DNA of 64,000 nt from Candidatus Binatia bacterium (GCA_022823055.1 JAJDXX010000035.1:22054-86053), one strand, 5' to 3'. Shown: positions 27,623-54,946, counted from the first letter of the stretch. The notes: generated from the letters alone by a model not told the origin. Made by a program: numbers and translations.

Positions 27623-27792
27623 GACTTCATTCCCGGTCCCCCGGTCCGTCATTCCCGCGCAAGCGGGAATCCATGGGTGGGGGTGTGGCGGCACCATTGC
27701 CCCGGCCTCTCCCCGCCTGGATTCCCGCCCCCGATCGGGGTCGAGGGCAAGCTTGCGCGGGAATAACGGACCGGGGGACCGGGAATGAAGTC
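27623..27792. repeat. MITE-like palindromic intergenic repeat, copy 1 (core ATTCCC-N8-GGGAAT; 37-bp near-perfect terminal inverted repeats)
   Basis: GACTTCATTCCCGGTCCCCCGGTCCGTCATTCCCGCGCAAGCGGGAATCC...GGATTCCCGC...CGCGGGAATAACGGACCGGGGGACCGGGAATGAAGTC; related copies at 30750-30850 and 43160-43298. Confidence 0.85.
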
Positions 27793-30682: not shown

Positions 30683-30749
30683 CCCTCCTGAACCCCCGCT
30701 CTTCAGGCTGTGTCAAACCCCACTGAACAGGAAAGGGCACGCCCCCCGG

Positions 30750-30850
30750 AATCGTCATTCCCGCGGAAGCGGGAATCCAGGGGTGGTGGCGTGGCGGCTC
30801 CATTGTCCCGGCCCCACCCCGCCTGGATTCCCGCCTCCGCGGGAATGACA
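30750..30850. repeat. MITE-like palindromic repeat, copy 2 (shorter)
   Basis: GTCATTCCCGCGGAAGCGGGAATCCAGGGGTGG...CCACCCCGCCTGGATTCCCGCCTCCGCGGGAATGAC. Confidence 0.85.
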
Positions 30851-30888
30851 TATTCGTAACGACGGATGTTGTCGGCGGCGCCACCGAC

Positions 30889-35234: not shown

Positions 35235-35615
35235 ATGAAGACATTGAAGATCGGCATCGCCGGCTATGACCGGATGAAGGCGCGCACCATGGCGATTGCC
35301 CGCGGCGAGTACAAGCCCGCGAAGGGTGAGCCGAAGGTCTGGTTCACATCGGTAGAGAGTTTCGCGAAGGTGCTCTCGCAGCGCAATCGAGAACTCTTGA
35401 CGCTGATCGCACGGGAACAGCCGGGCTCGCTCACGGAACTGGCGGAGCTGTCCGGGAGACACAAGTCGAATCTGTCGCGCACCCTCAAGACGATATCGCG
35501 GTATGGCTTGGTGGAATTGAAGGAAGGGCGACGGGGCGCGTTGATCCCGCGTGTGCCATACGACCGTGTGAGCCTCGACGTCCTGTTGACCGCCACCCCG
35601 CGGCAGGTCGCGTAG
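35235..35615 (+). CDS. Small predicted winged-helix transcriptional regulator
   Basis: 126 aa; putative HTH SLTELAELSGRHKSNLSRTLKTISRYGLVE; lies in a lower-GC patch. Confidence 0.45.
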   Translation: MKTLKIGIAGYDRMKARTMAIARGEYKPAKGEPKVWFTSVESFAKVLSQRNRELLTLIAREQPGSLTELAELSGRHKSNLSRTLKTISRYGLVELKEGRRGALIPRVPYDRVSLDVLLTATPRQVA

Positions 35616-36919: not shown

Positions 36920-37330
36920 TCATTCGTCGAGGGACTTCATGTACTCGATGACGTTGCGCCGGTCCTTTTCCCTGAAGTATTTCATCGTCATGCGCGACTT
37001 GACCTTGGGGTCCTTGAGAAAGCCACGGAGAAATTTCTTGGGGTTTCTGAGGTATTGAAACAGGGTCTCGTCGCTCCAGACCAAGCCCTCCTTGCCCGCG
37101 CGCACGTAGGCCGGCGAGTATCGGAACCCTTCGGCCTGTCCCGCGGGGCGGCCCAGGACCTTGTGGAGGGTGGGTCCAGTCTTGTGCTTGCCCTCCACGT
37201 CGGTATGGCACACAAGACAACGTTTGAAGACCTTCTTGCCGGCTGCCAGGTCATTCTCGGCGAAGGCCGCGTTGGCACCCAAAGCCGCCCATGCCATGAG
37301 CGCCGACAACAGGAGAATGCCTGGTGCCAT
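36920..37330 (-). CDS. Class I cytochrome c (mono-haem, c2/c550-like) with signal peptide
   Basis: CLVCH haem-binding motif ~25 aa after the signal peptide; Met ligand region ...SRMTMKY; gene sits in a ~55% GC stretch. Confidence 0.75.
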   Translation of the reverse strand: MAPGILLLSALMAWAALGANAAFAENDLAAGKKVFKRCLVCHTDVEGKHKTGPTLHKVLGRPAGQAEGFRYSPAYVRAGKEGLVWSDETLFQYLRNPKKFLRGFLKDPKVKSRMTMKYFREKDRRNVIEYMKSLDE

Positions 37331-37592
37331 CGTAAAACCTCCCGTGCTCACCGTGGATGGGTTACGGGCCACGAGTCCGTGTGAGCCTCTCTACAATTTA
37401 GGTACTGTTGGCGGGAATTGAAAGAGAAACGGAAGACCCACGGAATTGGCTTCTCGTTGTTTCGGTGCCGGTACCGGTGGTATATTGGGGTCACCTGTCC
37501 TGGGATGGATTCGAGGCGGCTGGCAGAGTTGACTCGAGTCGGTCGTAGAAGGTCTCATGCAAGAGGAGGCTTGGCAGGTGGTGCTTACGAGA

Positions 37593-38660
37593 ATGACCTT
37601 CGGGTTGGTCCTGGTGGCCTTGCTGTGGCTGGCTGCCCCGGCGGCGAGCGCGGGCGCCGAGGGAGGAAAGGACGTCGCGGCGGTCCGGGCCGAGTTGGGC
37701 AAGCGGCTGTTCTACGACGAGCGGCTTTCAGGCGACGTCAACTTCGCCTGTGCGACCTGCCACCAACCGGACAAGGCGTTCAGCGACGGCAAGGCTCTGT
37801 CCGCCGCCTACACCGGCGCCGCCCACTTCCGCAACACCCCCACCCTCGCCAATGTCGGCCGCCGCGCCGCGTGGATGCACGACGGCCGCCTGGGCACGAA
37901 CCTCAACGACGTCACCCGCGAGATGATCACCGAGACCTACCTCATGAACATGGACATGAGGCTCATGCAGGAACGTCTCAAGCAGGATCCGGTCTACGTC
38001 GAGATGTTCAGCGCCGCCGGGCTGGGGGAGCCGTCCAACGGCGGCGCCCGCGGGGCCCTGGCCGTATTCCTGGGCACCATCGTCTCGCGCGGCGCGCCCG
38101 TCGATACGGGGGAACTGTCCGCGGCCGCCCGGCGGGGACAGACGCTGTTCCAGGGCCGGGCGGGCTGCGCTTCATGCCACTCGGGGGCGCGATACACCGA
38201 CGACAAGCCGCACAACACCGGCGTCCCGGACAATCCGGAGATCTGGGCCGATCCGCGACGACACTCGGCCTTCGTGACCTACGCCAAGTTCATGGGCATC
38301 GAGAACTACATGGCCCTGCGCGAGGATCCCGGCGCCTACGTGCGCACCCACCGGCCGGAGACCCGCCGCAGCTTCCTCACCCCGACGCTGCGGGAGCTCA
38401 AGTGGACGGCGCCCTACATGCACAACGGCGTGCTCGGTTCGCTGGGGGAGGTCGTGGATTTCTATGACGCCGGCGGCGGGGACGATCCGTTGAAGGACCC
38501 ACGACTCAAGCCGCTCGGATTGACGCCCGGAGAGAAGGCCGATCTCGTGGCTTTTCTAGAGGCGCTGAGCGGCGAGACGTTCGATACCGACGAATTCGTC
38601 TGGCGCGCGGACGACTACGACTACAAGCCGGTCCGGAACTGGCGCAAGGCACCGAACTGA
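37593..38660 (+). CDS. Di-haem cytochrome c peroxidase family protein 1 (CCP/MauG family)
   Basis: Signal peptide; two CxxCH motifs (CATCH, CASCH); PTLRELKWTAPYMHNGVLGSLGEVV matches the CCP-family TPSLRNV..TAPYFHNG block. Confidence 0.8.
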   Translation: MTFGLVLVALLWLAAPAASAGAEGGKDVAAVRAELGKRLFYDERLSGDVNFACATCHQPDKAFSDGKALSAAYTGAAHFRNTPTLANVGRRAAWMHDGRLGTNLNDVTREMITETYLMNMDMRLMQERLKQDPVYVEMFSAAGLGEPSNGGARGALAVFLGTIVSRGAPVDTGELSAAARRGQTLFQGRAGCASCHSGARYTDDKPHNTGVPDNPEIWADPRRHSAFVTYAKFMGIENYMALREDPGAYVRTHRPETRRSFLTPTLRELKWTAPYMHNGVLGSLGEVVDFYDAGGGDDPLKDPRLKPLGLTPGEKADLVAFLEALSGETFDTDEFVWRADDYDYKPVRNWRKAPN

Positions 38661-38671
38661 GGGAGAGCACG

Positions 38672-39811
38672 GTGAACGGCGTCCGAACGATTCTCGTTGT
38701 CCTGACGGTCGCAGTGCTGGTGGCGGCCGCGGCGCCGGCGAACGCCGTGCGGCCGCCTGAGCTGGCGCCTCTGGGTCCGCCTCCCGTTCCGGCGGACAAC
38801 CCGATGTCGGCGGAGAAGGTCGAGCTCGGCAAGCTGCTGTTCTTCGATCCCATCCTCTCGGGCAACTACGCCATGCCGTGTGCCGTGTGCCACTTTCCCG
38901 AGGCGGGCTGGTCGGTGCCGGAGCCCGTCAGCACGGGCTACCCCGGCACCATCCACTGGCGCAACAGCCAGACCATCATCAACGCCGCCTACTACGGCAA
39001 GCTCTTCTGGGCCGGTTCCTCCAAGTCGCTGGAGTCCCAGGCGCGCTCCGCCGCCCGGGGCGCGGTGGCGGGCAACGGCGAGGACGACATGATGGAAGCG
39101 CGGCTCGCCTTCGTGCCCGAGTACCGGCGGCGGTTCAAGGAGGTCTTCGGCGACGACTGGCCCAACATCCGCCACGCCTACATGGCCATCGCCGCGTTCC
39201 AGCGCACCCTGGTCCAGACCGACACGCCCTTCGACCGCTACATGCGCGGCGACGACAATGCGCTGAACGCCTCGCAGAAGCGGGGCCTCGAGCTGTTCGC
39301 CGGCAAGGCCAACTGCATCGCCTGTCACAACGGGCCGCTCCTGACGGACGAGAAGTACCACAACGTGGGCGTGCCCCCCTACACGGGCTGGGAAGACGAC
39401 GCGGTGGCGCAGATCACCTTCCGCTTCGAGCTTTACGCCAAGGGCGTCACCGAGGCCATGTACCGCAAGACCAAGGACGACCCCGGGCTTTATTTCCGGG
39501 CCAAGGAAAAGAAGCACTTGGGCAAGTTCCGTACCCCGAGCCTCCGCTACACCAGGTACACGTCCCCCTACATGCACAACGGCATGCTGGCGACCCTGCC
39601 CGACGTGGTGGAATTCTACAACCGCGGCGGCGGCAAGAACGAGTTCGCCGCCACCAAGAGCCCGTTGATCCGGCCCTTGGGCCTCAGCGATGCCGAGATG
39701 GACGACCTGGTGGCGTTCCTGGAGGGCCTTTCGGGCAAGGAGATCCTGATGGAGACGCCGGATCTCCCGGTGATGGAGCCGTTGCCGCCTCCGGGCGGGA
39801 AGGGGAAGTAG
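38672..39811 (+). CDS. Di-haem cytochrome c peroxidase family protein 2 (paralog)
   Basis: Signal peptide; CAVCH and CIACH; TPSLRYTRYTSPYMHNGMLATLPDVV. Confidence 0.8.
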   Translation: MNGVRTILVVLTVAVLVAAAAPANAVRPPELAPLGPPPVPADNPMSAEKVELGKLLFFDPILSGNYAMPCAVCHFPEAGWSVPEPVSTGYPGTIHWRNSQTIINAAYYGKLFWAGSSKSLESQARSAARGAVAGNGEDDMMEARLAFVPEYRRRFKEVFGDDWPNIRHAYMAIAAFQRTLVQTDTPFDRYMRGDDNALNASQKRGLELFAGKANCIACHNGPLLTDEKYHNVGVPPYTGWEDDAVAQITFRFELYAKGVTEAMYRKTKDDPGLYFRAKEKKHLGKFRTPSLRYTRYTSPYMHNGMLATLPDVVEFYNRGGGKNEFAATKSPLIRPLGLSDAEMDDLVAFLEGLSGKEILMETPDLPVMEPLPPPGGKGK

Positions 39812-39838
39812 CGTCCGCGGACGCCGGAGGACAGTGCC

Positions 39839-40417
39839 ATGACGATATCCTGCGGAAACCTCCCTCGGCAGCCCGCGGGCGACGGGGCAAACGACGGCTC
39901 GACACCCTGCCTGGTGAGCCGGCGCAGCTTCCTCCTGTGGAGCGGCATCACCACCGCGGTGATCATGGTCGGCATCCCCGGGCGTCCCGGGGCGCAGACG
40001 CCGGCGGTGGTGTCCACCTACCCGCGCAAACTCATCGGCAAGCTGTCCTCGCTGGAGCTGAATGAGCCCGTCGACTTCGAATATCCTGACGAGGGAGACT
40101 ACGCGGAGTCGATCCTGGTGAAGCTCGGCACCCCCGCGGGCGGCGGCATCGGCCCCGGCCGCGACGTGGTGGCGTTCAACTACACGTGCACGCACCAGGG
40201 CGGCCCGCTCCAGGGCACCTACCGGCCCGAGGACAAGGCGCTGGGTCCGTGCCCGCTGCACCTGACCACCTTCGACCTCACGCGCCACGGCATCTTCATC
40301 TCGGGGCAGGCCTACCAGTCGCTGCCCCAGGTGCTGCTGGAGCTCGACGGCGACGACATCTACGCCGTCGGCATGTTCGGCCTGATCTACGGCCGGTTCG
40401 ACAATCTCCAGTCCTGA
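39839..40417 (+). CDS. Rieske [2Fe-2S] small subunit of an arsenite-oxidase-family (AioB/IdrB-like) molybdoenzyme, Tat signal
   Basis: Twin-arginine motif SRRSFLLW; Rieske boxes CTHQGG ... CPLHLT; positioned immediately upstream of the Mo large subunit as in aioBA. Confidence 0.75.
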   Translation: MTISCGNLPRQPAGDGANDGSTPCLVSRRSFLLWSGITTAVIMVGIPGRPGAQTPAVVSTYPRKLIGKLSSLELNEPVDFEYPDEGDYAESILVKLGTPAGGGIGPGRDVVAFNYTCTHQGGPLQGTYRPEDKALGPCPLHLTTFDLTRHGIFISGQAYQSLPQVLLELDGDDIYAVGMFGLIYGRFDNLQS

Positions 40418-40429
40418 GGATCCGTTGAC

Positions 40430-43111
40430 ATGGCTACTCCGTATCACGTCCCCGAACAGAGCGTTCCGCTGCCGCCTCCGGACGCGGAGGTCATCTCCAC
40501 GGCGTGCGACTACTGCGTGGTGGCCTGCGGCTACAAGGTGTACCGCTGGCCCGTGCGGCGGGGGAAGGACGGCGGTCCGGCCGCCGCCGAGAACGCCCTC
40601 GGCGCGGACTTCCCCGTGGAGCCCCTGGGTTCCTGGGTCAGCGGCGACCAGCACAACATCGTGATGCACGAGGGCCGGCCGCACCACGTGGTCATCCTCC
40701 CGGACAAGGACACCGACTTCGTCAACCACACCGGCAACTCCTCGGTCCGCGGCGGCCTGATCGCGCAGAAGGTCTACAATCCCGACAAGCCCACCCGCGA
40801 CCGGCTCCGGTCGCCGCTGGTGCGGATCTTCGGGGTGCTGATGCCGGTGACCTGGGACTTCGCCTTCGACGTCGCCGCCGAGGTGGGCAACTACGTCCTG
40901 GCGAAGCACGGCACCAACGCCTACGCCGTGAAGACCTTCTCCTACGGCTATCTCGAGAACACCTACGCCATCACCAAGTACGCCCTGCGGAACGTGCGGA
41001 CGGCGAACTTCACGTTCCACGACACGCCGTCCGACGTCACCTCCACGCCCGGTTTCCGCGACGCGGGGTTCGACAACTTCGGGCCGTCCTACGAGGACTG
41101 GCGCGACGCCGAAGTGCTGTTGATCTGCGGCACCGACCCCTACGAGACCAAGACCATCCTGTTCACCGACTGGGTCATGCCCGGGATCCAGAACGGGCAG
41201 AGGACGATCTTCATGCTGCCGCGCCGCACCGCCGGCGTCGCCTACGCGGAAAGCCAGGGCGGCCTGTACATCGACATCCAGCCGGGCACCGACCTGCCGG
41301 TGCTGATGGCCATCGCCCGGGTGATCGTCGAGAACGGCTGGGAGGACGGGGAGTGGATCCGCAAGTGGGTCAACTCCAAGTGGGAAAGCTCGTCCGGGTT
41401 CGGACAGGGGACGCGCAATACGCCGTGGCAGTGGCGTACCACCTGGGGGATGTTCCAGACCGACGGGTTCGAGGACTGGAAGAGGTGGCTGCTGGCCCAA
41501 GACTACACGGTGCCGGAGAAGGCCGCCGCCATCGCCGGAATCGACGTCAAGAAGATCCATACGGCCGCCGAGTGGATGGCGAAGCCGCGCGAGGACGGCT
41601 CCCGGCCCAAGACCTCCATCATGATCGAGAAGGGCTGTTACTGGTCCAACAACACCGGCAACACCAACGCCATCGCCTCCCTGGGCATCGTCTGCGGCGC
41701 CGGCGGACGGCCCGGCCAGGTGGTGGGGCGGGCCGGCGGACACCAGCGCGGCGGCCTGCGGGGCGGCAGCTACCCGCGCAACAAGAGCCCGGAGAAGCTG
41801 CCGGGCCGGCGCCGGCGGGCGCTGGATACCGACCGCTACCTGATGGCCGGCCATACCCGCCTGGCCCACGTCATCGGCAACACCTGGGTGCAGGGCATGT
41901 GCGGCACCCAGTCCCTGCAGGAGAAGTTCGACGAGCTGACGACGCGCAACCCGCACCAAGTACGGAGCTTCGACCGCAAGGACGTCGTAGAGACGCTGAA
42001 GCGGCGGACGGACTCGGGCGGCATGGTGGTGTGGCACCAGGACATCTACCTGGTGGACCCCATCGGCGCGCGCTACGCGGACATCGTGTTCCCGGCCGCC
42101 GGATGGGGCGAGGAGACCTTCACCCGGGCCAACGGCGAGCGGCGCATCCGCCTCTACCCCAAGTTCTACGACGCGCCCGGCGCGGCCCGGCCGGACTGGT
42201 GGATCATCGCGCAACTGGCGCGGAAGATGGGCTTCGAGGGCTTCGACTGGCAGGACTCCAACCAGGTGCTGGAGGAGGGCGCTCGCTTCTCCCGGGGCTC
42301 CCGCAAGGACTTCTTCGCGGTCAAGGTGGCCGCCCGGCGCGAGGGCAAGACCCTTCACGACAAGCTCCGGGAGTTCGGCACCAACGGCATCCAGGGCCCG
42401 GTGCTCATGCGCGCCGACGGCACCCTGGAGGAGACCAAGCGCCTCCACGACGTGAACCGGGTGCTGCCGGACGACGGCCCGGCAGGCGCCACGGTCTTCA
42501 ACAAGAAGCTGACGCACTTCAACACCCAGACCGGGAAACTGAACCTCCAGAAGGCGCCGTGGGAGCTCTTCTCCAGCTACTGGGAGTGGATGAAACCGCG
42601 GGAAGGGGAGATCTGGGTCACGTCCGGGCGCATCAACGAGCGCTGGCAGTCGGGCTACGACGACCGCCGGCGCCCCTACATCGAGCAGCGCTGGCCCGAG
42701 AACTGGATCGAGCTGCACCCCGACGACGCCCGCGCCCGCGGGTTGGAGTCGGGCGACTACGCGATGGTCTACTCCGACCGCATCCCGGTGCAGAAGGAAA
42801 CGATCCTCGGCGTCGAGCCCGACGACTTCGACTTCGCCGCGCTCCTCCGCAACGGCTACATCGAGCTGACCCGCGGCGCCATCACCGCGGTGGTGATCGT
42901 GACGCCGGCCATCAAGAAGGGCGTCGGCTTCATGGACTTCCTGCAGACCAGCCAGCCGGCCAATGCCCTCTCGGGCCGGGTGGTGGACTGGATCAGCGGC
43001 AACTACAACTACAAGATGGGCGTGGGACGGCTGAGGCGCATGGGTGAGAGCCCCTATAAGCGCCAGTTCCGCAGCATGTCGTTCGGCCGCCGCGACATCG
43101 CCATGGAATAG
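40430..43111 (+). CDS. Molybdopterin (bis-PGD) oxidoreductase large subunit, arsenite-oxidase family (AioA/IdrA-like)
   Basis: 893 aa; N-terminal [3Fe-4S]-type motif CDYCVVACGYKVYRWP (C-x2-C-x3-C, as in AioA CHFCIVGCGYHVYKWP) rather than the 4-Cys ArrA/ArxA type; no signal peptide (Tat hitch-hiker); extended similarity ENALG.DF...VVILPDKD...GNSSVRGG. Confidence 0.85.
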   Translation: MATPYHVPEQSVPLPPPDAEVISTACDYCVVACGYKVYRWPVRRGKDGGPAAAENALGADFPVEPLGSWVSGDQHNIVMHEGRPHHVVILPDKDTDFVNHTGNSSVRGGLIAQKVYNPDKPTRDRLRSPLVRIFGVLMPVTWDFAFDVAAEVGNYVLAKHGTNAYAVKTFSYGYLENTYAITKYALRNVRTANFTFHDTPSDVTSTPGFRDAGFDNFGPSYEDWRDAEVLLICGTDPYETKTILFTDWVMPGIQNGQRTIFMLPRRTAGVAYAESQGGLYIDIQPGTDLPVLMAIARVIVENGWEDGEWIRKWVNSKWESSSGFGQGTRNTPWQWRTTWGMFQTDGFEDWKRWLLAQDYTVPEKAAAIAGIDVKKIHTAAEWMAKPREDGSRPKTSIMIEKGCYWSNNTGNTNAIASLGIVCGAGGRPGQVVGRAGGHQRGGLRGGSYPRNKSPEKLPGRRRRALDTDRYLMAGHTRLAHVIGNTWVQGMCGTQSLQEKFDELTTRNPHQVRSFDRKDVVETLKRRTDSGGMVVWHQDIYLVDPIGARYADIVFPAAGWGEETFTRANGERRIRLYPKFYDAPGAARPDWWIIAQLARKMGFEGFDWQDSNQVLEEGARFSRGSRKDFFAVKVAARREGKTLHDKLREFGTNGIQGPVLMRADGTLEETKRLHDVNRVLPDDGPAGATVFNKKLTHFNTQTGKLNLQKAPWELFSSYWEWMKPREGEIWVTSGRINERWQSGYDDRRRPYIEQRWPENWIELHPDDARARGLESGDYAMVYSDRIPVQKETILGVEPDDFDFAALLRNGYIELTRGAITAVVIVTPAIKKGVGFMDFLQTSQPANALSGRVVDWISGNYNYKMGVGRLRRMGESPYKRQFRSMSFGRRDIAME

Positions 43112-43159: not shown

Positions 43160-43298
43160 CGTCGTCATTCCCGGCCCCCCATACGTCATTCCCGCGAAAG
43201 CGGGAATCCAGGCGGGGTGGGGCCTGGGGCAATGGGCCGCCACACCACCACCTCTGGATTCCCGCTTTCGCGGGAATGACGTATGGGGGGCCGAAGTC
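43160..43298. repeat. MITE-like palindromic repeat, copy 3
   Basis: TCATTCCCGGCCCCCCATACGTCATTCCCGCGAAAGCGGGAATCCAGG...CTGGATTCCCGCTTTCGCGGGAATGACGTATGGGGGGCCGAAGTC; lies directly after the Mo-enzyme large subunit. Confidence 0.85.
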
Positions 43299-43312: not shown

Positions 43313-45457
43313 ACCATGACCGATCCCGTTAGTTTGATCTCCCCGTATCTTCGGGCCCCGGAGGAACCGATCCGTTGCGCCGCCGCCCGCGCTCTCGGCG
43401 TGCTGGGCGACGAGGACGCGGCACCGGCTCTGGTGGACGCGTTGCTGGACCCGGACCCGGACGTGCGCGCCGATGCCATGGCGGCGCTGGTGCGTTGCGC
43501 CCGGCCGCAGGACGCGCCGGCGATCCGGCGCTCGTTGCAGGGCGATCCGGCGGGCGACGTCAAGACCGCGGCCGTGCGGGTCCTGGGCCGGCTCAAGGAC
43601 ACGGCGTCCACGGAGTTGCTGCGGGCGCTGGCGCAGGACCGATGCGAGCCGGAGGTGGCGTGGGAAGAGGGTTCGTGGGACGACTGGCTCGACGTGCAGG
43701 TGGCCGCCATCGCCGCCCTGGGGGACATGGGCGCCGAGTCCGCGGTGGACGACCTGGTCCGGGTACGGGCCGACGAGGATGGACAGGAGCTCGATCACGT
43801 GGTCTTCGCCGCCTTGGCGAAGATGCCCGGACGCGGAGTCGCGGCCCTCCTCGATTTCCTGAGGGACGGCGACGCGCGGGTCCGGCAGCGTGCTCTGACG
43901 GCGTTGTCGGGTGTCGGCGGAAGCGGGTTGACGCCGTTGCGCGACCGTCTCATCGGCGACCGGAGCGCGGGGGTTCGCCGGATCGCGGTGGATTGCCTGG
44001 ACGCGGACGACCCGGTACTGTCCGCCCTCGCCCTGAAGGACCCTGACCCCGCGGTCCGTGCCGCCGCGCTGACGCGAGTCGCGCCGGTCCGGGAGGATAT
44101 CGTCCGGTCGGCTCTGGGCGATCCCGAACCGGGAGTACGCGCCGCGGCCGTCGAGGCGCTTGCCGCGCACGTGTCCCCGGGTGACCGGCCCGCGCTCGCC
44201 GCGAAGCTGGAAGCCTGGCTTCGGGACGGGAACGCCCGCCTGGCGGCGGCGTGTGCGGAGGCCCTGCCCAAGGTATCGGGTAGGGCCGCACTGGGTCCGC
44301 TGCGGCGGATGGCGGCGGCCACGGAAGCGCTTGTCGAGGTGCGTATCGCCGCGCTCAAGGGCCTGGGAGAGGTCGGCACGCCGGAGGCCGTGGACGTGTT
44401 GCGTGCTGCAGCGGTGGATTCCGTCCGCCAAGTGCGTCTGGCGGCGTTGGCGGCCGCGGCCGCGTTGATCCGCACCGGGCTTGAGGCCGGGGCGCGGAAC
44501 CTGTTGATCGGCGCCATGTGCGGCGATCTTCGAACCGAGGCCTTCGGTGGGGAAACGGCTACGGAGGAACCTGTTTCCGGTGCGGCAGTTCCCGGGCCCG
44601 GTGAAAGGGGACGCATCGCCATTGCGCCCGAGGGCGACATAGTCCCCGCGAAGGAGACGCCAGAGGTTTCCGGTTCGTCCGACTCCGGCACGGGCGCCGA
44701 AGCACCGCCGTACCCGCGCTCCACTCTCGAAGCGATTCAGGCGACGGGGTTCGGGGCACCCGGGCGGTCCCCGCGTCCGCCGGCGTCACCGGCGACCGCC
44801 GGGCGAGTCCGGTCCCGCCGCGTGCCCGTGGGGGGCGCGGACGACGTCGACGCCGATATTCGGCTGACGGCGGTCCGGCTTGCCGCGGACTGCGGCGCCA
44901 ACGGCATGGACGAGGTGCTGGCGGAAACCGCCCTGTCGACGGAATCCGACCTGCGGGCGGCCGTCTTCGAGGCCATAGCCCAGCGCGCGGCGGCCATGCC
45001 GTTGGCGCCCGTCCTGCGGGCTGTCCTGGCGCGGTCACTGGGCTCCGACGATGCGCGCGTGCGTTGCGCCGCCGTCCGCGGCCTGACCGCGGCGGGTCTC
45101 GACCACGCGCGACAACTCATCCCGCTGCTGGACGACCCCGACCCCTCGGTCCGGGCGGCGGCGGTGACGGCGGTTGCCGCCGTCCATCCGGAGAGAGCCG
45201 CGGCGGGTTTTCACGACTCCTCGCCCCTGGTCCGCCGAGCCGCTGTGGACGCCGTCATCGCGGCAGGCGAGGATCGTTTGCTCGACGACGGCCTGCGGGT
45301 GCTGGTGGACGGCAGCCATGCCGACAGCCTCATGGATGCATGTGCGCGTCACATTGAGGTGACTCGGAAGTTGATCGGGATGCTCAGCGATCCCCAGGTC
45401 TCGAAGCCGAGGCTTCGGACGATGCTGGAAGCCTTGGGCGGTGCCGGGGGCGAATGA
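43313..45457 (+). CDS. HEAT-repeat (PBS-lyase-type) protein
   Basis: More than 10 tandem HEAT-like units (D/EP..VRA.AA.AL...); GC3 pattern supports plus frame over the overlapping 432-aa minus ORF. Confidence 0.6.
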   Translation, partial: TMTDPVSLISPYLRAPEEPIRCAAARALGVLGDEDAAPALVDALLDPDPDVRADAMAALVRCARPQDAPAIRRSLQGDPAGDVKTAAVRVLGRLKDTASTELLRALAQDRCEPEVAWEEGSWDDWLDVQVAAIAALGDMGAESAVDDLVRVRADEDGQELDHVVFAALAKMPGRGVAALLDFLRDGDARVRQRALTALSGVGGSGLTPLRDRLIGDRSAGVRRIAVDCLDADDPVLSALALKDPDPAVRAAALTRVAPVREDIVRSALGDPEPGVRAAAVEALAAHVSPGDRPALAAKLEAWLRDGNARLAAACAEALPKVSGRAALGPLRRMAAATEALVEVRIAALKGLGEVGTPEAVDVLRAAAVDSVRQVRLAALAAAAALIRTGLEAGARNLLIGAMCGDLRTEAFGGETATEEPVSGAAVPGPGERGRIAIAPEGDIVPAKETPEVSGSSDSGTGAEAPPYPRSTLEAIQATGFGAPGRSPRPPASPATAGRVRSRRVPVGGADDVDADIRLTAVRLAADCGANGMDEVLAETALSTESDLRAAVFEAIAQRAAAMPLAPVLRAVLARSLGSDDARVRCAAVRGLTAAGLDHARQLIPLLDDPDPSVRAAAVTAVAAVHPERAAAGFHDSSPLVRRAAVDAVIAAGEDRLLDDGLRVLVDGSHADSLMDACARHIEVTRKLIGMLSDPQVSKPRLRTMLEALGGAGGE

Positions 45458-49529: not shown

Positions 49530-50038
<509 letters not shown>

Positions 50039-50042
<4 letters not shown>

Positions 50043-52408
50043 AGAAGAACGGGTTCTCCGTCATCGGCAAGCCGCTGCCGCGCATCGACGGTCCGGCCAA
50101 GTGCGCGGGCGACACGCGTTACGCCGACGACATGGTGCTGCCGCGCATGCTGTTCTCCCGGCTGCTGCGGAGCCCGCACCCCCACGCCTTGGTGCACGGC
50201 GTCTCGGCGAAACGCGCGTTGGAGCTGCCGGGCGTCCACGCGGTCATCACCGGCGCGGACGTGCCCACCAAGTTCGGCATCATGCCTTCCACCCAGGACG
50301 AGGAGGCACTGGCGGTGGACAAGGTGCGCTACGTCGGCGACCCGGTGGCGGCGGTGGCGGCGGTGAGTGAGGACGCGGCCGAGGAGGCGCTCGGCCTCAT
50401 CGAGGTGGACTACCAGGTGCTCGACCCCATCCTGTCCATCGAGGGCGCGCTGGCGGCCGAGGACCACCGCATCCACACCTGGAACCGGCACGCCAATATC
50501 CAGAAGGCGGTGTCCTTCGAGTTCGGCGACGTGGACGCCGGCTTTGCGGAGGCGGACGAGGTGTTCGAGGGCACCTACTTCTTCCAGGGCAACACCCACT
50601 TGCCCATGGAGCAGTACTGCGCGCTGGCCAGCTACACTCCCGACGGCAAGCTGACGCTGTGGTCCTCCACCCAGACCCCGCACTACGTGCACCGCGCCCT
50701 GTCCCGGGTCCTGGGCCTGCCCATGGGGCACATCCGGGTCGTCGCCACGCCGGTGGGCGGCGGTTTCGGCGGCAAGAGCGACCCGTTCTCCCACGAGATC
50801 GCGGTGGCCAAGCTGGCCATGATCACGGGGCGGCCGGTGAAGATCACCCTCAACCGGGAAGAGTCGTTCTATGTGCACCGGGGGCGCCATCCCGTGAAGA
50901 TGTGGATGCGCACGGGGGTCAAGCGGGACGGCACGCTCACGGGCATGTGGTTCCGCTCGTTCCTGGACGGCGGCGGCTACAGCAGCTACGGCCTGGCCAC
51001 GGTCTACTACACGGGTGCGCTGCAGACGGTGACCTACGAGTTGCCGGCCTACAAGTTCGAGGGCGTGCGCGTGTTCACCAACAAGCCGCCGTGCGGTCCC
51101 AAGCGCGGCCACGGCACCCCCCAGCCGCGTTTCGCCATGGAGGTGCAGCTCGACGAGATCGCGGAAAAGCTCGGGCTGGACCCGGTGGAAATGCGCCTCA
51201 AGCAGGTGGTGGCGCCCGACAGCGTCACGGTGAACGGACTGCGGGTGTCGACCATCGGCCTGCGGGAATGCATCGAGAAGGTGGCCGAGCGCTCGGGCTG
51301 GAAGGACAAGCACCGCGCGCTACCCGACGGCCACGGCATCGGCTTCGCCGCCAGCTCCTACATCAGCGGCGCGGGTTTGCCCATCTACTGGAACGACATG
51401 CCCCACTCGGGGGTGCAGCTCCGCGCCGACCGGGGCGGCGGCGTCACGGTCTTCTGCGGCTCCACGGACATCGGCCAGGGTTCGGACTCGATCCTCGCCT
51501 TCGCCGTGGCCGAGGAGCTGGGGCTTCAGCCGGAGGACGTGCGGGTGGTGACCGCGGATACCGACCTTACGCCCGTGGACCTGGGCAGCTACTCCAGCCG
51601 GGTCACGGTGATGACCGGCAACGCCGCCATCCAGGCCTGCGGCAACCTCAAGGAGCGCCTGTTCGAGGTGGCCTCGGAGGTGCTGGAGGTGCCCGCCGAC
51701 GACCTTGAGATGGAGGAAGGGCATGTGCGCAGCCGCAGCCTGCCGGACCTGGGCCTGGCCTTCGCCGAGTGCGTCGAGCGCGCCGAGACCCGCTTCGGCA
51801 CCCTGGGCGCCACCGGCAGCTACCGGCCGCCGCGCCATCCGGGCGACTATAAGGGCGCCGGCGTCGGCCCCACGCCGTCGTACAGCTACTCCGCCGCGGT
51901 GGTGGAGCTCCACTGCGACGCCGACACCGGCGAGATCCGCATCGACAAGGTATGGATCGCCCACGACTGCGGCCGTGCCTTCAATCCCTTGTGGGTGGAG
52001 GGGCAGGTGGAGGGCAGCGTCTACATGGCCCTGGGCGAGGTGCTGATGGAAGAGCAGATCTTCCGCAAGTCGGGTGTGCACAAGATCCCTTCCATCCTCG
52101 AGTACAAGAGCCCCACCACGCTGGAGACGCCGCCCATCGAGACCATCCTGGTGGAGACCGACGACCCCGAGGGTCCCTTCGGCGCCAAGGAAGCGGGCCA
52201 GGGGCCGCTGCTGCCGGTGATCCCGGCGGTGTCCAACGCCGTGTACGACGCGGTGGGGGTGCGCATTCACGAGATCCCCATCACCCCGGACAAGATCCTG
52301 CGGGCGCTGGACCAGCGCCTCAAGGACCCCACGGTGCCGGACTTCGCGTTTCCCGCGCCCATCCGTTGGGCGCCGGGGCAGGGGGTCGAAGTGCCCCAGA
52401 AGAGCTGA
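50039..52408 (+). CDS. Molybdopterin-binding large subunit, xanthine-dehydrogenase family (CoxL/HcrA-like)
   Basis: 789 aa; ATGA overlap with small subunit; Ald_Xan_dh_C and C2 blocks (…GGGFGGK…, …GEP/AGQG…). Confidence 0.85.
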
Positions 52409-52427
52409 GAGAGTTGAGACCGGGCTG

Positions 52428-53453
52428 ATGCTGCGACTTCCCGATTTCACCTACATCCGGCCCCGCACCCTGGCGGAAGCGGCCGGCGTGCTCCAGGAGC
52501 TGGGGGCGGAAGCCATGGCCGTGGCCGGCGGCACCGACGTCTACCCCAAGATGAAGCGCGGTCAGTTCACCCCGCGCTACTTGGTGTCGCTGAGCCGTGT
52601 CGAAGAGCACCGGGGCATCCGCCGGGAGGAGGCGCGCGGGCTGTGGATCGGCGCGGGCGAGACCTTGACCGCGGTCGCCGGACACGCCACGGTGCGCCGG
52701 GAGTTTCCCGCGCTCGCCGCCGCGGCCGGCCTGGTGTCGACCCTGCAGCTCCGCAACGCCGGCACCATCGGCGGCAACCTGTTCGTGGACACCCGCTGCA
52801 ACTACTACGACCAGTCGTTCTTCTGGCGCCAGGCCGTGGGCTTCTGCCTCAAGAAGGACGGCGACATCTGCCTAGTGGCGCCCAAGAGTCGCGTCTGCCT
52901 CGCCATCTGTTCTTCGGACACCGCGCCGGTGCTCAGCAGCCTGGGCGCCGAGGCGGTTCTGGTGAGCGCCCGGGGCAACCGGCGGGTGCCGCTGGAAACC
53001 CTGTACCGCGACGACGGCATCGACTACCTTGCCAAGCGGCCCGACGAGCTGCTGCAGGGGGTTTGGATCCCGGAGTCGTCGTTCGGCTGGCGCAACGTCT
53101 ACCTCAAGCTGCGCCGCAGGGGCTCCTTCGACTTCCCCGTGCTGGGGGTGGCCGCGGCGCTGCGGTTGGGAGCGGCGGGAGCCTGTGAGGCGGTCCGCAT
53201 CGTCCTGACCGCGGTGGCGTCGGCGCCGAAGGTGGTGGAGGATGCGCCCCGGGTGCTGTGCGGCAAGCCCGTGGACGCCGCCGCCATCGAGGAAGCGGCG
53301 GAACTGGCCATGCGTGTGTCCCATCCGCTGGACAACGCGGACATGGATTACTGGTATCGCAAGCGCATGACACGGGTGTACGTGACGCGCGCGCTGCGGC
53401 AACTCGCGGAGGTCGGCGCCACAACCGCCGGCCCGGATGCGGCCCCCGTTTGA
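52428..53453 (+). CDS. FAD-binding subunit (CoxM/HcrB-like) carrying a Cys-rich insertion predicted to bind an extra [4Fe-4S] cluster
   Basis: FAD-binding PCMH domain (AVAGGTDVYPKMK). An inserted loop CNYYDQSFFWRQAVGFCLKKDGDICLVAPKSRVC gives C-x15-C-x7-C-x8-C, the spacing I recall for the extra cluster of 4-hydroxybenzoyl-CoA reductase beta subunits. Confidence 0.8.
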   Translation: MLRLPDFTYIRPRTLAEAAGVLQELGAEAMAVAGGTDVYPKMKRGQFTPRYLVSLSRVEEHRGIRREEARGLWIGAGETLTAVAGHATVRREFPALAAAAGLVSTLQLRNAGTIGGNLFVDTRCNYYDQSFFWRQAVGFCLKKDGDICLVAPKSRVCLAICSSDTAPVLSSLGAEAVLVSARGNRRVPLETLYRDDGIDYLAKRPDELLQGVWIPESSFGWRNVYLKLRRRGSFDFPVLGVAAALRLGAAGACEAVRIVLTAVASAPKVVEDAPRVLCGKPVDAAAIEEAAELAMRVSHPLDNADMDYWYRKRMTRVYVTRALRQLAEVGATTAGPDAAPV

Positions 53454-53473
53454 CCGGGCCGGAAAGGGAAGCC

Positions 53474-54946
53474 ATGGCGGTACCCGCTGAACTGGAAGCA
53501 CGGTTGCGAAGCCTGGAGGATCACCTGCGCGCGGAGAACCCCGTCTTGCTGGGCGCGGTGCAGAGCTTTCGCAGGCTCGACGGCATCGCCCGCGGGCTGG
53601 GGTTGCTGGGCGAGGAGGAGTCCTACGCCACGCGCATCCCCTGGTGGCCGCTGGTCGCGGTGCTGGGGACCTATTCGTCCGGGAAGTCCACGTTCATCAA
53701 CGATTTCCTCGGCCGACGGGTGCAGGACACGGGCAATCAGGCGGTGGACGATCGTTTCTCGGTGCTGTGCTTCGGCACGGAACCGGACGTACGGGTGCTG
53801 CCCGGAGTGGCGCTGGACGCCGACCCGCGCTTCCCGTTCTACAAGATGAGCCGGGCCATCGAGGAGATCAGCCCGGGGGAGGGAAGCCGCATCGACGCCT
53901 ACCTCCAGCTCAAGACCTGTCCCGGCGAGGTGCTGCGCGGCAGGATCCTCATCGATTCGCCGGGCTTCGACGCGGATCAGCAGCGCACCGCCACCCTGAG
54001 GATCACGGACCGCATCATCGATCTGGCGGATCTGGTGCTGGTGTTCTTCGACGCCCGCCATCCCGAGCCCGGCGCCATGCAGGACACCTTGCAGCACCTG
54101 GTGGCGGAGACCATTCACCGGACGGATTCGAGCAAGTTCCTGTACATCCTGAACCAGATGGATCACACGGCGCGCGAGAACAATCCGGAGGACATCGTCG
54201 GGTCCTGGCAGCGTGCGCTGGCGCAGAAGGGGCTCACCGCGGGGCGTTTCTACTGCATCTACAGCCCCAACGCCGCCGTCGTCATCGAGGACGACGGCCT
54301 GCGGGGGAGTTTCGAGCAGAAGCGGGACGAGGATCTTTCGGAGATCCATGGGCGCGTCCGGCAGGTGGGAGTAGATCGCTGCTATCGTATCATGGGCGTT
54401 CTGGAGCACACCGCGCGCGACATCGAATTGCGCCTGGTGCCGCGGCTCCGGGAGATGATCACCGACTGGCGCCGCCAGGTGCGGCGGCTGGACGGCGCCG
54501 TCTTCGCCGTGCTGCTGGCCGCGGCGCTGGGGTGGGCGGTCTGGAAGGGTGCATGGAGTGATTACTGGGCGGTGCTTTCAGGGGCGTCGGCGTGGACCTA
54601 CGGCGTGCTGGCGGTCGCGGCCCTGGTGGCCGGCTATGTCCACCACACCGTCCGGCGATTGGCCGCCGGGCGGGTCCTGCGAACTCTCCGGCGCTCGCTG
54701 GGAGCCGAGCGCGACACCGAGGTGCTCGACGCCCTGACCGCGGCATTCCGCAAGAACACGAGCCTCTGGCGCAACGTGTTCTCGGCGCGTCCGGCCGGCT
54801 GGAACCCCGCCACCCGGCAGCAACTCTCCGAGGTGATCACCGAGGCCAACGGCTACGTGCAGACCCTCAACGACCAGTTCACCAACCCCGGCGGCCGGAC
54901 GGACGCGGCGCCCCCGGCGGATCCGCCCGCCGAGGCGTCCGGGTAG
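53474..54946 (+). CDS. Dynamin-family GTPase with C-terminal membrane hairpin (bacterial dynamin-like protein)
   Basis: P-loop GTYSSGKST, DSPG switch II, NQMD (G4); two predicted C-terminal TM helices. Confidence 0.7.
   Translation: MAVPAELEARLRSLEDHLRAENPVLLGAVQSFRRLDGIARGLGLLGEEESYATRIPWWPLVAVLGTYSSGKSTFINDFLGRRVQDTGNQAVDDRFSVLCFGTEPDVRVLPGVALDADPRFPFYKMSRAIEEISPGEGSRIDAYLQLKTCPGEVLRGRILIDSPGFDADQQRTATLRITDRIIDLADLVLVFFDARHPEPGAMQDTLQHLVAETIHRTDSSKFLYILNQMDHTARENNPEDIVGSWQRALAQKGLTAGRFYCIYSPNAAVVIEDDGLRGSFEQKRDEDLSEIHGRVRQVGVDRCYRIMGVLEHTARDIELRLVPRLREMITDWRRQVRRLDGAVFAVLLAAALGWAVWKGAWSDYWAVLSGASAWTYGVLAVAALVAGYVHHTVRRLAAGRVLRTLRRSLGAERDTEVLDALTAAFRKNTSLWRNVFSARPAGWNPATRQQLSEVITEANGYVQTLNDQFTNPGGRTDAAPPADPPAEASG

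Follow-up and report, generated by a model that had tools for sequence, protein, structure and literature searches.

A Binatia-like genome with a probable iodate-reductase (idr) island of alphaproteobacterial type

The prototype iodate reductases are those of Pseudomonas sp. SCT, Azoarcus sp. DN11 and Denitromonas sp. IR-12, encoded by the four genes idrA, idrB, idrP1 and idrP2 (Yamazaki, 2020; PMC8692401; PMC10149662). The published evidence for this family comprises an idrA knockout in strain IR-12 and activity bands together with induction in SCT and DN11. Related idr clusters are found in Alphaproteobacteria such as Roseovarius azorensis, Aliiroseovarius sediminilitoris and Notoacmeibacter marinus (PMC11445184; PMC8692401, Table S3). 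In R. azorensis, IdrA was the top protein of the activity-stained band, all four idr genes were up 59–102-fold with iodate under static growth and responded to as little as 0.1 µM iodate, and cells converted 2 mM iodate to iodide stoichiometrically (Kine et al., 2024; PMC11445184). Reduction of iodate to iodide affects marine iodine speciation and, via iodide, sea-surface ozone deposition; the sole genetically defined marker of this process is the idr island. Here, a Rieske-molybdoenzyme locus is described within a 64,000-nucleotide stretch of DNA from a Candidatus Binatia bacterium (GCA_022823055.1, JAJDXX010000035.1:22054–86053; hereafter the window, in which all positions without a locus label are counted). 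With a probability of roughly 0.8, this locus is an intact copy of the described idrP2-idrP1-idrB-idrA iodate-reductase island, of the alphaproteobacterial type (hereafter alpha type), in a Binatia-like genome. The family is already known and no new enzyme class is present; the residual interest of the locus lies in its Binatia-like host, in a universally linked HEAT-repeat gene and in the MauG-type character of IdrP1 and IdrP2.

The core of the locus consists of four genes on the plus strand. The large subunit gene, idrA (40430–43111), encodes a bis-molybdopterin guanine dinucleotide (bis-MGD) molybdenum/[3Fe-4S] protein of 893 aa without a signal peptide, which matches the Pfam families Rieske_3, Molybdopterin and Molydop_binding and in which the motif C26-x2-C29-x3-C33-x70-S104 can be read directly. 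It is preceded by idrB (39839–40417), encoding a Rieske [2Fe-2S] small subunit of 192 aa with a signal for twin-arginine translocation (Tat; SRRSFL at residue 27) and the Rieske motif CTH-x18-CPLH. The motifs CX2CX3CX70S in the large subunit and SRRSFL and CXHX18CX2H in the small subunit are those published for IdrA and IdrB of DN11 (PMC10149662). Further upstream are two genes for di-haem proteins of the cytochrome c peroxidase (CCP)/MauG family (PF03150), the first at 37557–38660 (367 aa, CATCH and CASCH, probable start 37593) and the second at 38672–39811 (379 aa, CAVCH and CIACH). Each has two CXXCH motifs and a hydrophobic N-terminal Sec signal, and the two are 36% identical to each other. 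The gaps between the four genes in the open reading frame (ORF) listing are 11, 27 and 12 nt, and a terminator scan of the cluster found no terminator-like site between them. A class I c-type cytochrome gene lies divergently upstream (36920–37372, minus strand). These five genes had been proposed in a first-pass annotation of the window, together with an AioA-type C-x2-C-x3-C motif in the large subunit, a Tat-signal Rieske subunit just upstream of it and a paralogous pair of di-haem CCPs ahead of both; all five are intact ORFs, and each of these features was read in the sequence.

The assignment of the large subunit to IdrA was examined by sequence comparison and phylogeny. The window protein shares 50% identity over 893/892 aa with the protein named as iodate reductase subunit IdrA of Pseudomonas sp. 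SCT (P0392 = UniProt A0A391NTR7), and only 27–32% with AioA, the arsenite oxidase large subunit, of NT-26, Thermus HB8 and Burkholderia. A cluster look-up placed SCT IdrA inside protein cluster P0273 of the Azonexus-type clade; neither SCT nor DN11 was named among the matches of a protein search seeded with the Azonexus sequence. A scan of the GTDB species representatives returned at least 591 loci with relatives of the large subunit, of which the best 80 were fetched (L001–L080). The IdrA proteins of about 78 mostly alphaproteobacterial genomes are 74–87% identical to that of the window, and tblastn against plasmids gave 63% for a homologue on a Vibrio megaplasmid, 50% for one on an Azonexus plasmid and 27–30% for the bona fide aio loci of NT-26, Thermus HB8 and Burkholderia. 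A database search retrieved over 120 full-length homologues, each some 891 aa long and 73–97% identical, the named sources being mostly Roseobacter-group bacteria, Roseibium, Pseudovibrio and other marine Alphaproteobacteria. The published idr carriers of Reyes-Umana et al. (2021; PMC8692401, Table S3) include Thalassovita (Litorimicrobium) taeanensis, Oricola cellulosilytica, Pelagimonas varians and Labrenzia alba, and the IdrA proteins of these four species are 78–83% identical to the window protein. The earlier suggestion that the enzyme might be an uncharacterised member of the Aio/Idr clade is therefore abandoned, as it belongs to a large, published alphaproteobacterial IdrA group.

Neighbour-joining (NJ) trees were constructed from 809–821 trimmed columns with 300 bootstraps, supports being taken as explicit bipartition counts, and the set included representatives of the 50%-identity clusters obtained by searching exhaustively with HMMER. 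These trees placed the window protein within an alpha-type clade (100%), with the SCT-type clade also at 100% and the union of alpha-type, SCT-type and Vibrio-type sequences at 83–84%. The window protein was shut out, with 100% support, from the AioA clade, which comprised NT-26, Thermus and Burkholderia sequences plus four representatives, so that the phylogeny proposed in the first-pass annotation, run here as NJ, puts the protein with IdrA and apart from AioA. Profile searches gave a less distinct picture. The large subunit narrowly passes the NCBIfam model TIGR02693 (423.8 bits, cutoff 359.05) and the small subunit passes TIGR02694 (118.3 bits, cutoff 95.65), and the database names of all homologues read arsenite oxidase or arsenate reductase (azurin). 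These models do not separate Aio from Idr, since PGAP names SCT IdrA in the same way. The crystallised AioA chains in the PDB score about 276 bits against the window large subunit. For the window IdrB, identity is 54% with its Azonexus counterpart and 42% with the AioB of NT-26.

The substrate pocket points in the same direction as the trees. In AioA of Alcaligenes faecalis, three waters marking the substrate site bind H195, E203, R419 and H423 (PMC3758308). In the alignment, the window protein keeps H195, R419 and H423, with E203 replaced by Ser205 and the Glu that follows HQ replaced by Arg. The segments that read IHNRPAYNSE and R-x-GGHQEGY in every aligned AioA read FHDTPSDVTS and RAGGHQRGG in the window protein, as in all sequences of the alpha type; SCT IdrA has HQRGG in common with the window protein and differs in the first segment (WHDKCSATNDA). 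By alignment, then, the enzyme departs from the AioA pocket signature and has the Idr-wide HQR change. Inspection of the pocket had also been proposed at the outset, and the replaced signature, the lost E203, the tree, the identity values and the synteny described below together bear out the original view that the locus is of the idrABP1P2 type and not a classic aio locus.

With the window proteins as tblastn queries, the gene order ccp-ccp-small subunit-large subunit was recovered at virtually all loci of sufficient length, about 80 in all, the first CCP being syntenic in about 70 loci and the second in about 75. The same order is present in a Vibrio locus (L081) and on the SCT-type Azonexus plasmid, where it reads sensor kinase, sigma-54 regulator, ccp, ccp, small subunit, large subunit, cytochrome c and moaA. 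This conservation upholds the claim that the CCP pair belongs to the cluster and does not represent unrelated housekeeping peroxidases. In Azoarcus DN11, consecutive accessions correspond to IdrA, IdrB, IdrP1 and IdrP2, with the regulators described as upstream (PMC10149662); a transcription order of P2-P1-B-A is thereby implied, and the first CCP of the window would correspond to IdrP2 and the second to IdrP1. Two of the fetched loci deviate in structure. In a gammaproteobacterial metagenome-assembled genome (MAG; L080:6461–12664), idrB-idrA-HEAT occurs without upstream ccp genes, with dnaG and rpoD in their place; its IdrA groups with the Binatia-like trio at 99% bootstrap and has an altered pocket (YHDAPAAVSAT), and the locus may be a natural ccp-less variant. 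In an alphaproteobacterial MAG (L063:10001–19539), the idrA match covers only residues 1–796, with the HEAT gene some 4.6 kb further downstream, which suggests that this idrA is disrupted by an insertion.

Downstream of idrA, the window encodes a HEAT-repeat protein of 713 aa (43316–45457, plus strand; the longest ORF starts at 43283 and gives 724 aa) with seven HEAT_2 stretches by Pfam. It is probably cytoplasmic, because it has no signal peptide. In all but one (L063) of the 75 loci with enough downstream sequence, thus in 74, a HEAT homologue in the orientation of idrA starts no more than 1.5 kb 3' of that gene. When the check was reversed, all four distant HEAT homologues chosen from a database search (34–62% identity; L088–L091) were found downstream of ccp-ccp-Rieske-molybdoenzyme clusters, three of them directly after the cluster and the fourth (L088) with an ankyrin-repeat gene inserted between. 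The HEAT gene is thus a conserved fifth gene of the alpha-type idr cluster, and its earlier reading as a sign of horizontal acquisition does not hold. The family is small (184 proteins at E ≤ 1e-10, all of about 700–800 aa), lacks a signal peptide and has a conserved N-terminal signature, VAWE..WDDWLD.Q. No HEAT gene was present in the SCT-type loci examined, and no published link between Idr and HEAT repeats was found in the open-access literature searched. It should also be noted that the Vibrio-type locus carries an ORF of 677 aa divergent from its ccp genes (L081:2028–4061, minus strand) with weak HEAT-like similarity. A segment of it, YWDGEWNDGDD, aligns with the WE..WDDWLD part of the signature; the match to the HEAT family is weak, being not significant by BLASTP, below the Pfam cutoff and of 19% probability by hhalign. 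The ORF may be a distant relative of the HEAT family.

The two di-haem proteins show resemblance to the MauG branch of the CCP family. The best PDB match of both paralogs is 6e1c, annotated as a di-heme enzyme, which ranks ahead of canonical peroxidases and which we take to be BthA, a MauG-like enzyme. The top NCBIfam matches are MbnH and MauG, both far below their cutoffs, with scores of 194–202 for TIGR03791 (cutoff 444) and 162–226 for TIGR04039 (cutoff 363). None of the partner substrate genes of those systems (mauA/B, mbnP) was found nearby in the window. In a C-terminal alignment, Tyr316 of the second CCP (VVEFY) falls on Tyr294 of MauG, the axial ligand of the six-coordinate haem of that enzyme, and the first CCP has the corresponding Tyr303 in VVDFY. 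By coordinates, this position would equal residue 275 of 1eb7 if the stretch is gap-free, presumably the Met ligand of the high-potential haem in the Pseudomonas aeruginosa CCP. On this putative Met-to-Tyr mapping, both paralogs have Tyr in place of the Met of the His/Met haem that characterises canonical bacterial CCPs. The tyrosine, in the form FY(N/D)xGG, is present in both paralogs at every locus examined, including alpha, Vibrio and Azonexus (SCT-type) loci. Such a MauG/BthA-like His/Tyr haem suggests that the IdrP proteins can hold high-valent states, and it would temper, without refuting, a simple peroxide-detoxification role. No mention of IdrP1 together with MauG was found in the literature searched.

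The divergent cytochrome c has a single CLVCH motif, a Sec signal and a match to Pfam Cytochrom_C. Its probable start is at 37330, giving a protein of 136 aa; this start is supported by a GGAGG sequence upstream of the ATG and by a homologue in L087 that is called at 136 aa. The protein shares 34.5% identity with the cytochrome c whose gene follows aioA in NT-26, and the divergent gene is kept only in Binatia-like relatives, being present in all of those examined (L001, L002, L087, L088 and L089). Because of this similarity and conserved position, it is a natural candidate for the electron donor to IdrAB. Cupredoxin (Copper-bind) genes were also seen adjoining two alpha-type idr clusters (L090:10133–10627 and L091:845–1357), and may encode alternative donors that replace the cytochrome c of the Binatia-like lineage. 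A patch of lower GC content around the cytochrome c gene had been reported at about 55%; such a patch does exist in the intergenic region between the two probable starts (37331–37592, 55.7%), whereas for the cytochrome c gene itself (59.4%) this figure is slightly overstated. The idr genes have 67–68% GC and the window 67.1%.

The divergent intergenic region that separates the longest ORFs of the cytochrome c and the first CCP (37373–37556) presumably holds the promoters of both genes. No match to the sigma-70 consensus was found in the cluster, a scan that, like that for terminators, is uninformative for this organism. Within 400 nt upstream of the first ccp, boxes of the FNR/CRP type (TTGA-N6-TCAA), often two, were detected in 23 of 63 other loci (within L004–L070, e.g., L004, L006, L007, L009, L010 and L012), whereas the window, L001 and L002 have none there. 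In L091, moreover, a regulator of the CRP family is divergently encoded (L091:1437–2144). Both observations fit the reported induction at low oxygen. The regulators of classic aio loci are missing, as had been claimed: no AioX homologue was found in the 64-kb window, in which only generic two-component matches occur, 33 kb away, and no aioX, aioS/aioR or ars genes adjoin the island. A small winged-helix (HVO_A0114/MarR-like) regulator gene is located near the island at 35235–35615. The corresponding stretch is different DNA in L002 and the gene has no homologue in any fetched locus; it is probably unrelated to idr.

In the mechanism proposed for this organism, IdrB with its Tat signal would escort the signal-less IdrA into the periplasm. 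Electrons from the respiratory chain would pass to a soluble c-type cytochrome, for which the divergent class I cytochrome c is the candidate, then to the Rieske cluster and on through the [3Fe-4S] cluster to Mo-bisMGD, where iodate, the presumed substrate, would be reduced. The product would be HIO as in published models, and then iodide. The two Sec-exported di-haem proteins would act on a reactive by-product, which is H2O2 in the published models, and the cytoplasmic HEAT protein would probably aid maturation or assembly.

With regard to the host, the two closest loci, L001 and L002, belong to MAG chromosomes that are complete and bear the labels 'Thermodesulfobacteriota bacterium' and 'Candidatus Binatia bacterium'. 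Their IdrA proteins are 96% identical to that of the window, and synteny extends well beyond the island at 81–91% nucleotide identity. The IdrA proteins of the Binatia-like genomes nest in proteobacterial sequences, together with an alphaproteobacterial and a gammaproteobacterial MAG (L003 and L080, 100% bootstrap), and for this reason inter-phylum transfer of the island appears likely from the trees. This transfer would not be recent, because the GC and GC3 (third codon position) of the idr genes equal the host average, the island sits in the same chromosomal neighbourhood in L001, L002 and L087, and HEAT homologues have diverged to 58–78% identity in many related MAG chromosomes, of which the two inspected (L088 and L089) have the same cytochrome c/idr arrangement. 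The idr DNA is 91% identical to that of the sister genomes, compared with 81–91% for the flanks. Taken together, these comparisons point to long vertical retention under selection. No paper linking Binatia with iodate reduction was found in the literature searched.

Between idrA and the HEAT gene lies a palindromic repeat resembling a miniature inverted-repeat transposable element (MITE) or repetitive extragenic palindrome (43172–43293), with 49-nt inverted arms that are 94% complementary and a predicted RNA hairpin of −131.8 kcal/mol (z = −10). Three copies are present in the window (27623–27792, 30744–30853 and 43172–43293) with the core GTCATTCCCGCGnAAGCGGGAATCCAG. L001 and L002, the sister genomes, lack the palindrome at their idrA-HEAT site. 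The element was thus inserted later and specifically in this host, does not belong to the ancestral island and therefore says nothing on how the island arrived. The MITE copy reported in the first-pass annotation is thus real, and its use as a sign of horizontal acquisition is not. The flanks of the island encode ordinary metabolic proteins (UbiD-like, IspH-like, glyoxalase-fold and amidohydrolase). About 5 kb downstream (49688–54946), genes of the xanthine dehydrogenase/CO dehydrogenase family (MoCoBD large subunit and FAD-binding subunit) make up another molybdoenzyme locus that is unrelated to the first, and an Rfam scan of the whole window gave no match.

Several points weigh against the identification of this locus as an iodate-reductase island of the alpha type. 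The trees are distance-based, with the union of alpha and SCT types at only 83–84%, and the link to the experimentally tested alpha-type IdrA runs through congeneric and co-listed species. No regulator adjoins the idr genes of the window, and the FNR-type boxes of other loci are missing. The pocket of the alpha type (HDTPSDVTST) is unlike that of the genetically proven SCT/IR-12 type (HDKCSATNDA), so that the substrate identity of the alpha type depends on the R. azorensis work alone. The alphaproteobacterial strains tested by Kine et al. (2024; PMC11445184) are aerobes without anaerobic growth on iodate, and crude extract gave less than 0.1 U/mg of methyl-viologen activity. The pocket difference, this physiology, the MauG-type Tyr in both IdrP proteins where canonical peroxidases have a Met ligand, a function of IdrP that 'remains unclear' according to the literature, and the HEAT gene of the alpha type that the SCT-type loci examined do not have could all be accommodated by a true Idr enzyme that in this lineage has a physiological substrate or role other than respiratory iodate reduction. 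Its substrate might be a different oxyanion or oxidant, or it might serve to scavenge iodate in micro-oxic settings with no energy conserved, the di-haem proteins doing something other than removing peroxide. Such a role is considered unlikely, as R. azorensis turns 2 mM iodate into iodide stoichiometrically, its idr genes respond to 0.1 µM iodate, IdrA dominates the activity band, and an alternative substrate is without any support.

Far less probable is an arsenite oxidase (AioBA) that happens to have two unrelated peroxidase genes nearby. The passing scores for TIGR02693 (423.8) and TIGR02694, the database names of the homologues and the conservation of three of the four AioA substrate-site residues are what would be expected of such an enzyme. 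However, identity to defined AioA is 27–32%, with about 276 bits for the PDB chains, and AioA sequences make up a clade of their own (100% bootstrap). The invariant IHNRPAYNSE (with E203) and HQEG have given way to other residues, aioX, aioS/aioR and ars genes do not adjoin the island, the CCP genes are syntenic in about 80 loci, and the same family is an iodate reductase in SCT and R. azorensis. Pocket, clade and neighbourhood thus largely refute the arsenite oxidase reading. Least credible of all is that the island is a recent, possibly decaying passenger, horizontally acquired and non-functional in its host. The nesting of Binatia-like IdrA among proteobacterial sequences (100% with L003 and L080) does imply transfer at some point, and a MITE-like element lies inside the cluster. 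Yet all genes are full length with intact cofactor motifs, composition is host-like, the neighbourhood is shared with L001, L002 and L087, the idr DNA (91%) is conserved at least as well as its flanks (81–91%), and related MAGs hold HEAT homologues of 58–78% identity with the same arrangement in L088 and L089; composition and synteny thus lead to rejection of a recent passenger.

An idr island of the alpha type therefore remains the preferred identification. A more far-reaching proposal, put forward tentatively since it is more likely to be wrong than right as a whole, is that the alpha-type system is a five-gene unit in which the HEAT protein is a dedicated maturation or assembly factor of IdrAB, IdrP1 and IdrP2 are MauG/BthA-like His/Tyr enzymes that reach high-valent states and act on an iodine or oxygen intermediate or on the enzyme itself, and the whole is stably inherited in the Binatia-like lineage. 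If the last part were true, iodate reduction would be extended to that phylum. The locus points to a non-proteobacterial lineage in which the island has been retained along with a cytochrome c partner of its own, and it shows that genes annotated automatically as 'arsenate reductase (azurin)' in Binatia-like genomes are idr, which matters when arsenic and iodine cycling are read from metagenomes. The linked HEAT gene and the MauG-type tyrosine in both IdrP proteins, neither of which was found in the open-access literature searched, bear on the role of IdrP1 and IdrP2.

Among known systems, the alphaproteobacterial idr clusters of R. azorensis, A. sediminilitoris, N. marinus and the species in Table S3 of PMC8692401 are the most similar to the window locus. 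Both have the order ccp-ccp-Rieske-molybdenum subunit-HEAT, an IdrA of about 891 aa with 74–87% identity, FHDTPSDVTS and GGHQRGG, and Tat/Sec targeting; the window locus differs in its Binatia-like host, divergent cytochrome c, MITE-like palindrome and missing FNR-type boxes. The prototype IdrABP1P2 of SCT, DN11 and IR-12 has the same four genes in the probable order P2-P1-B-A, an IdrA of 50% full-length identity, the motifs CX2CX3CX70S, SRRSFL, CXHX18CX2H and HQR, and the FY(N/D)xGG tyrosine in both di-haem partners. It differs in forming a separate sub-clade (100% for each) with the pocket HDKCSATNDA, and SCT-type loci have a sensor kinase and sigma-54 regulator upstream and cytochrome c and moaA genes downstream, but lack a HEAT gene, whereas the window has none of these regulators and downstream genes and does have the HEAT gene. 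With the MauG/BthA/MbnH branch, the two di-haem proteins share 6e1c as best match, the top NCBIfam matches and the tyrosine aligned with Tyr294 of MauG, but they are encoded with a molybdoenzyme, score far under the equivalog cutoffs and have no mauA/B or mbnP beside them. Finally, AioBA of A. faecalis (1G8K) and Rhizobium/Pseudorhizobium NT-26 (4AAY) resembles the window enzyme in its Tat-Rieske small subunit and signal-less [3Fe-4S]/Mo-bisMGD large subunit, in the small-then-large gene order, in H195, R419 and H423, and in a soluble cytochrome c as redox partner (34.5% identity between that of the window and that of NT-26). In contrast to AioBA, the window protein (27–32% identical) has Ser for E203, HQRG for HQEG and an insertion after HQRGG (GGSYPRNK), and its locus is without the aioXSR genes (NT-26 has aioX, a sensor kinase and aioR) and includes two di-haem proteins and a HEAT protein, with a proposed catalysis that would be reductive.

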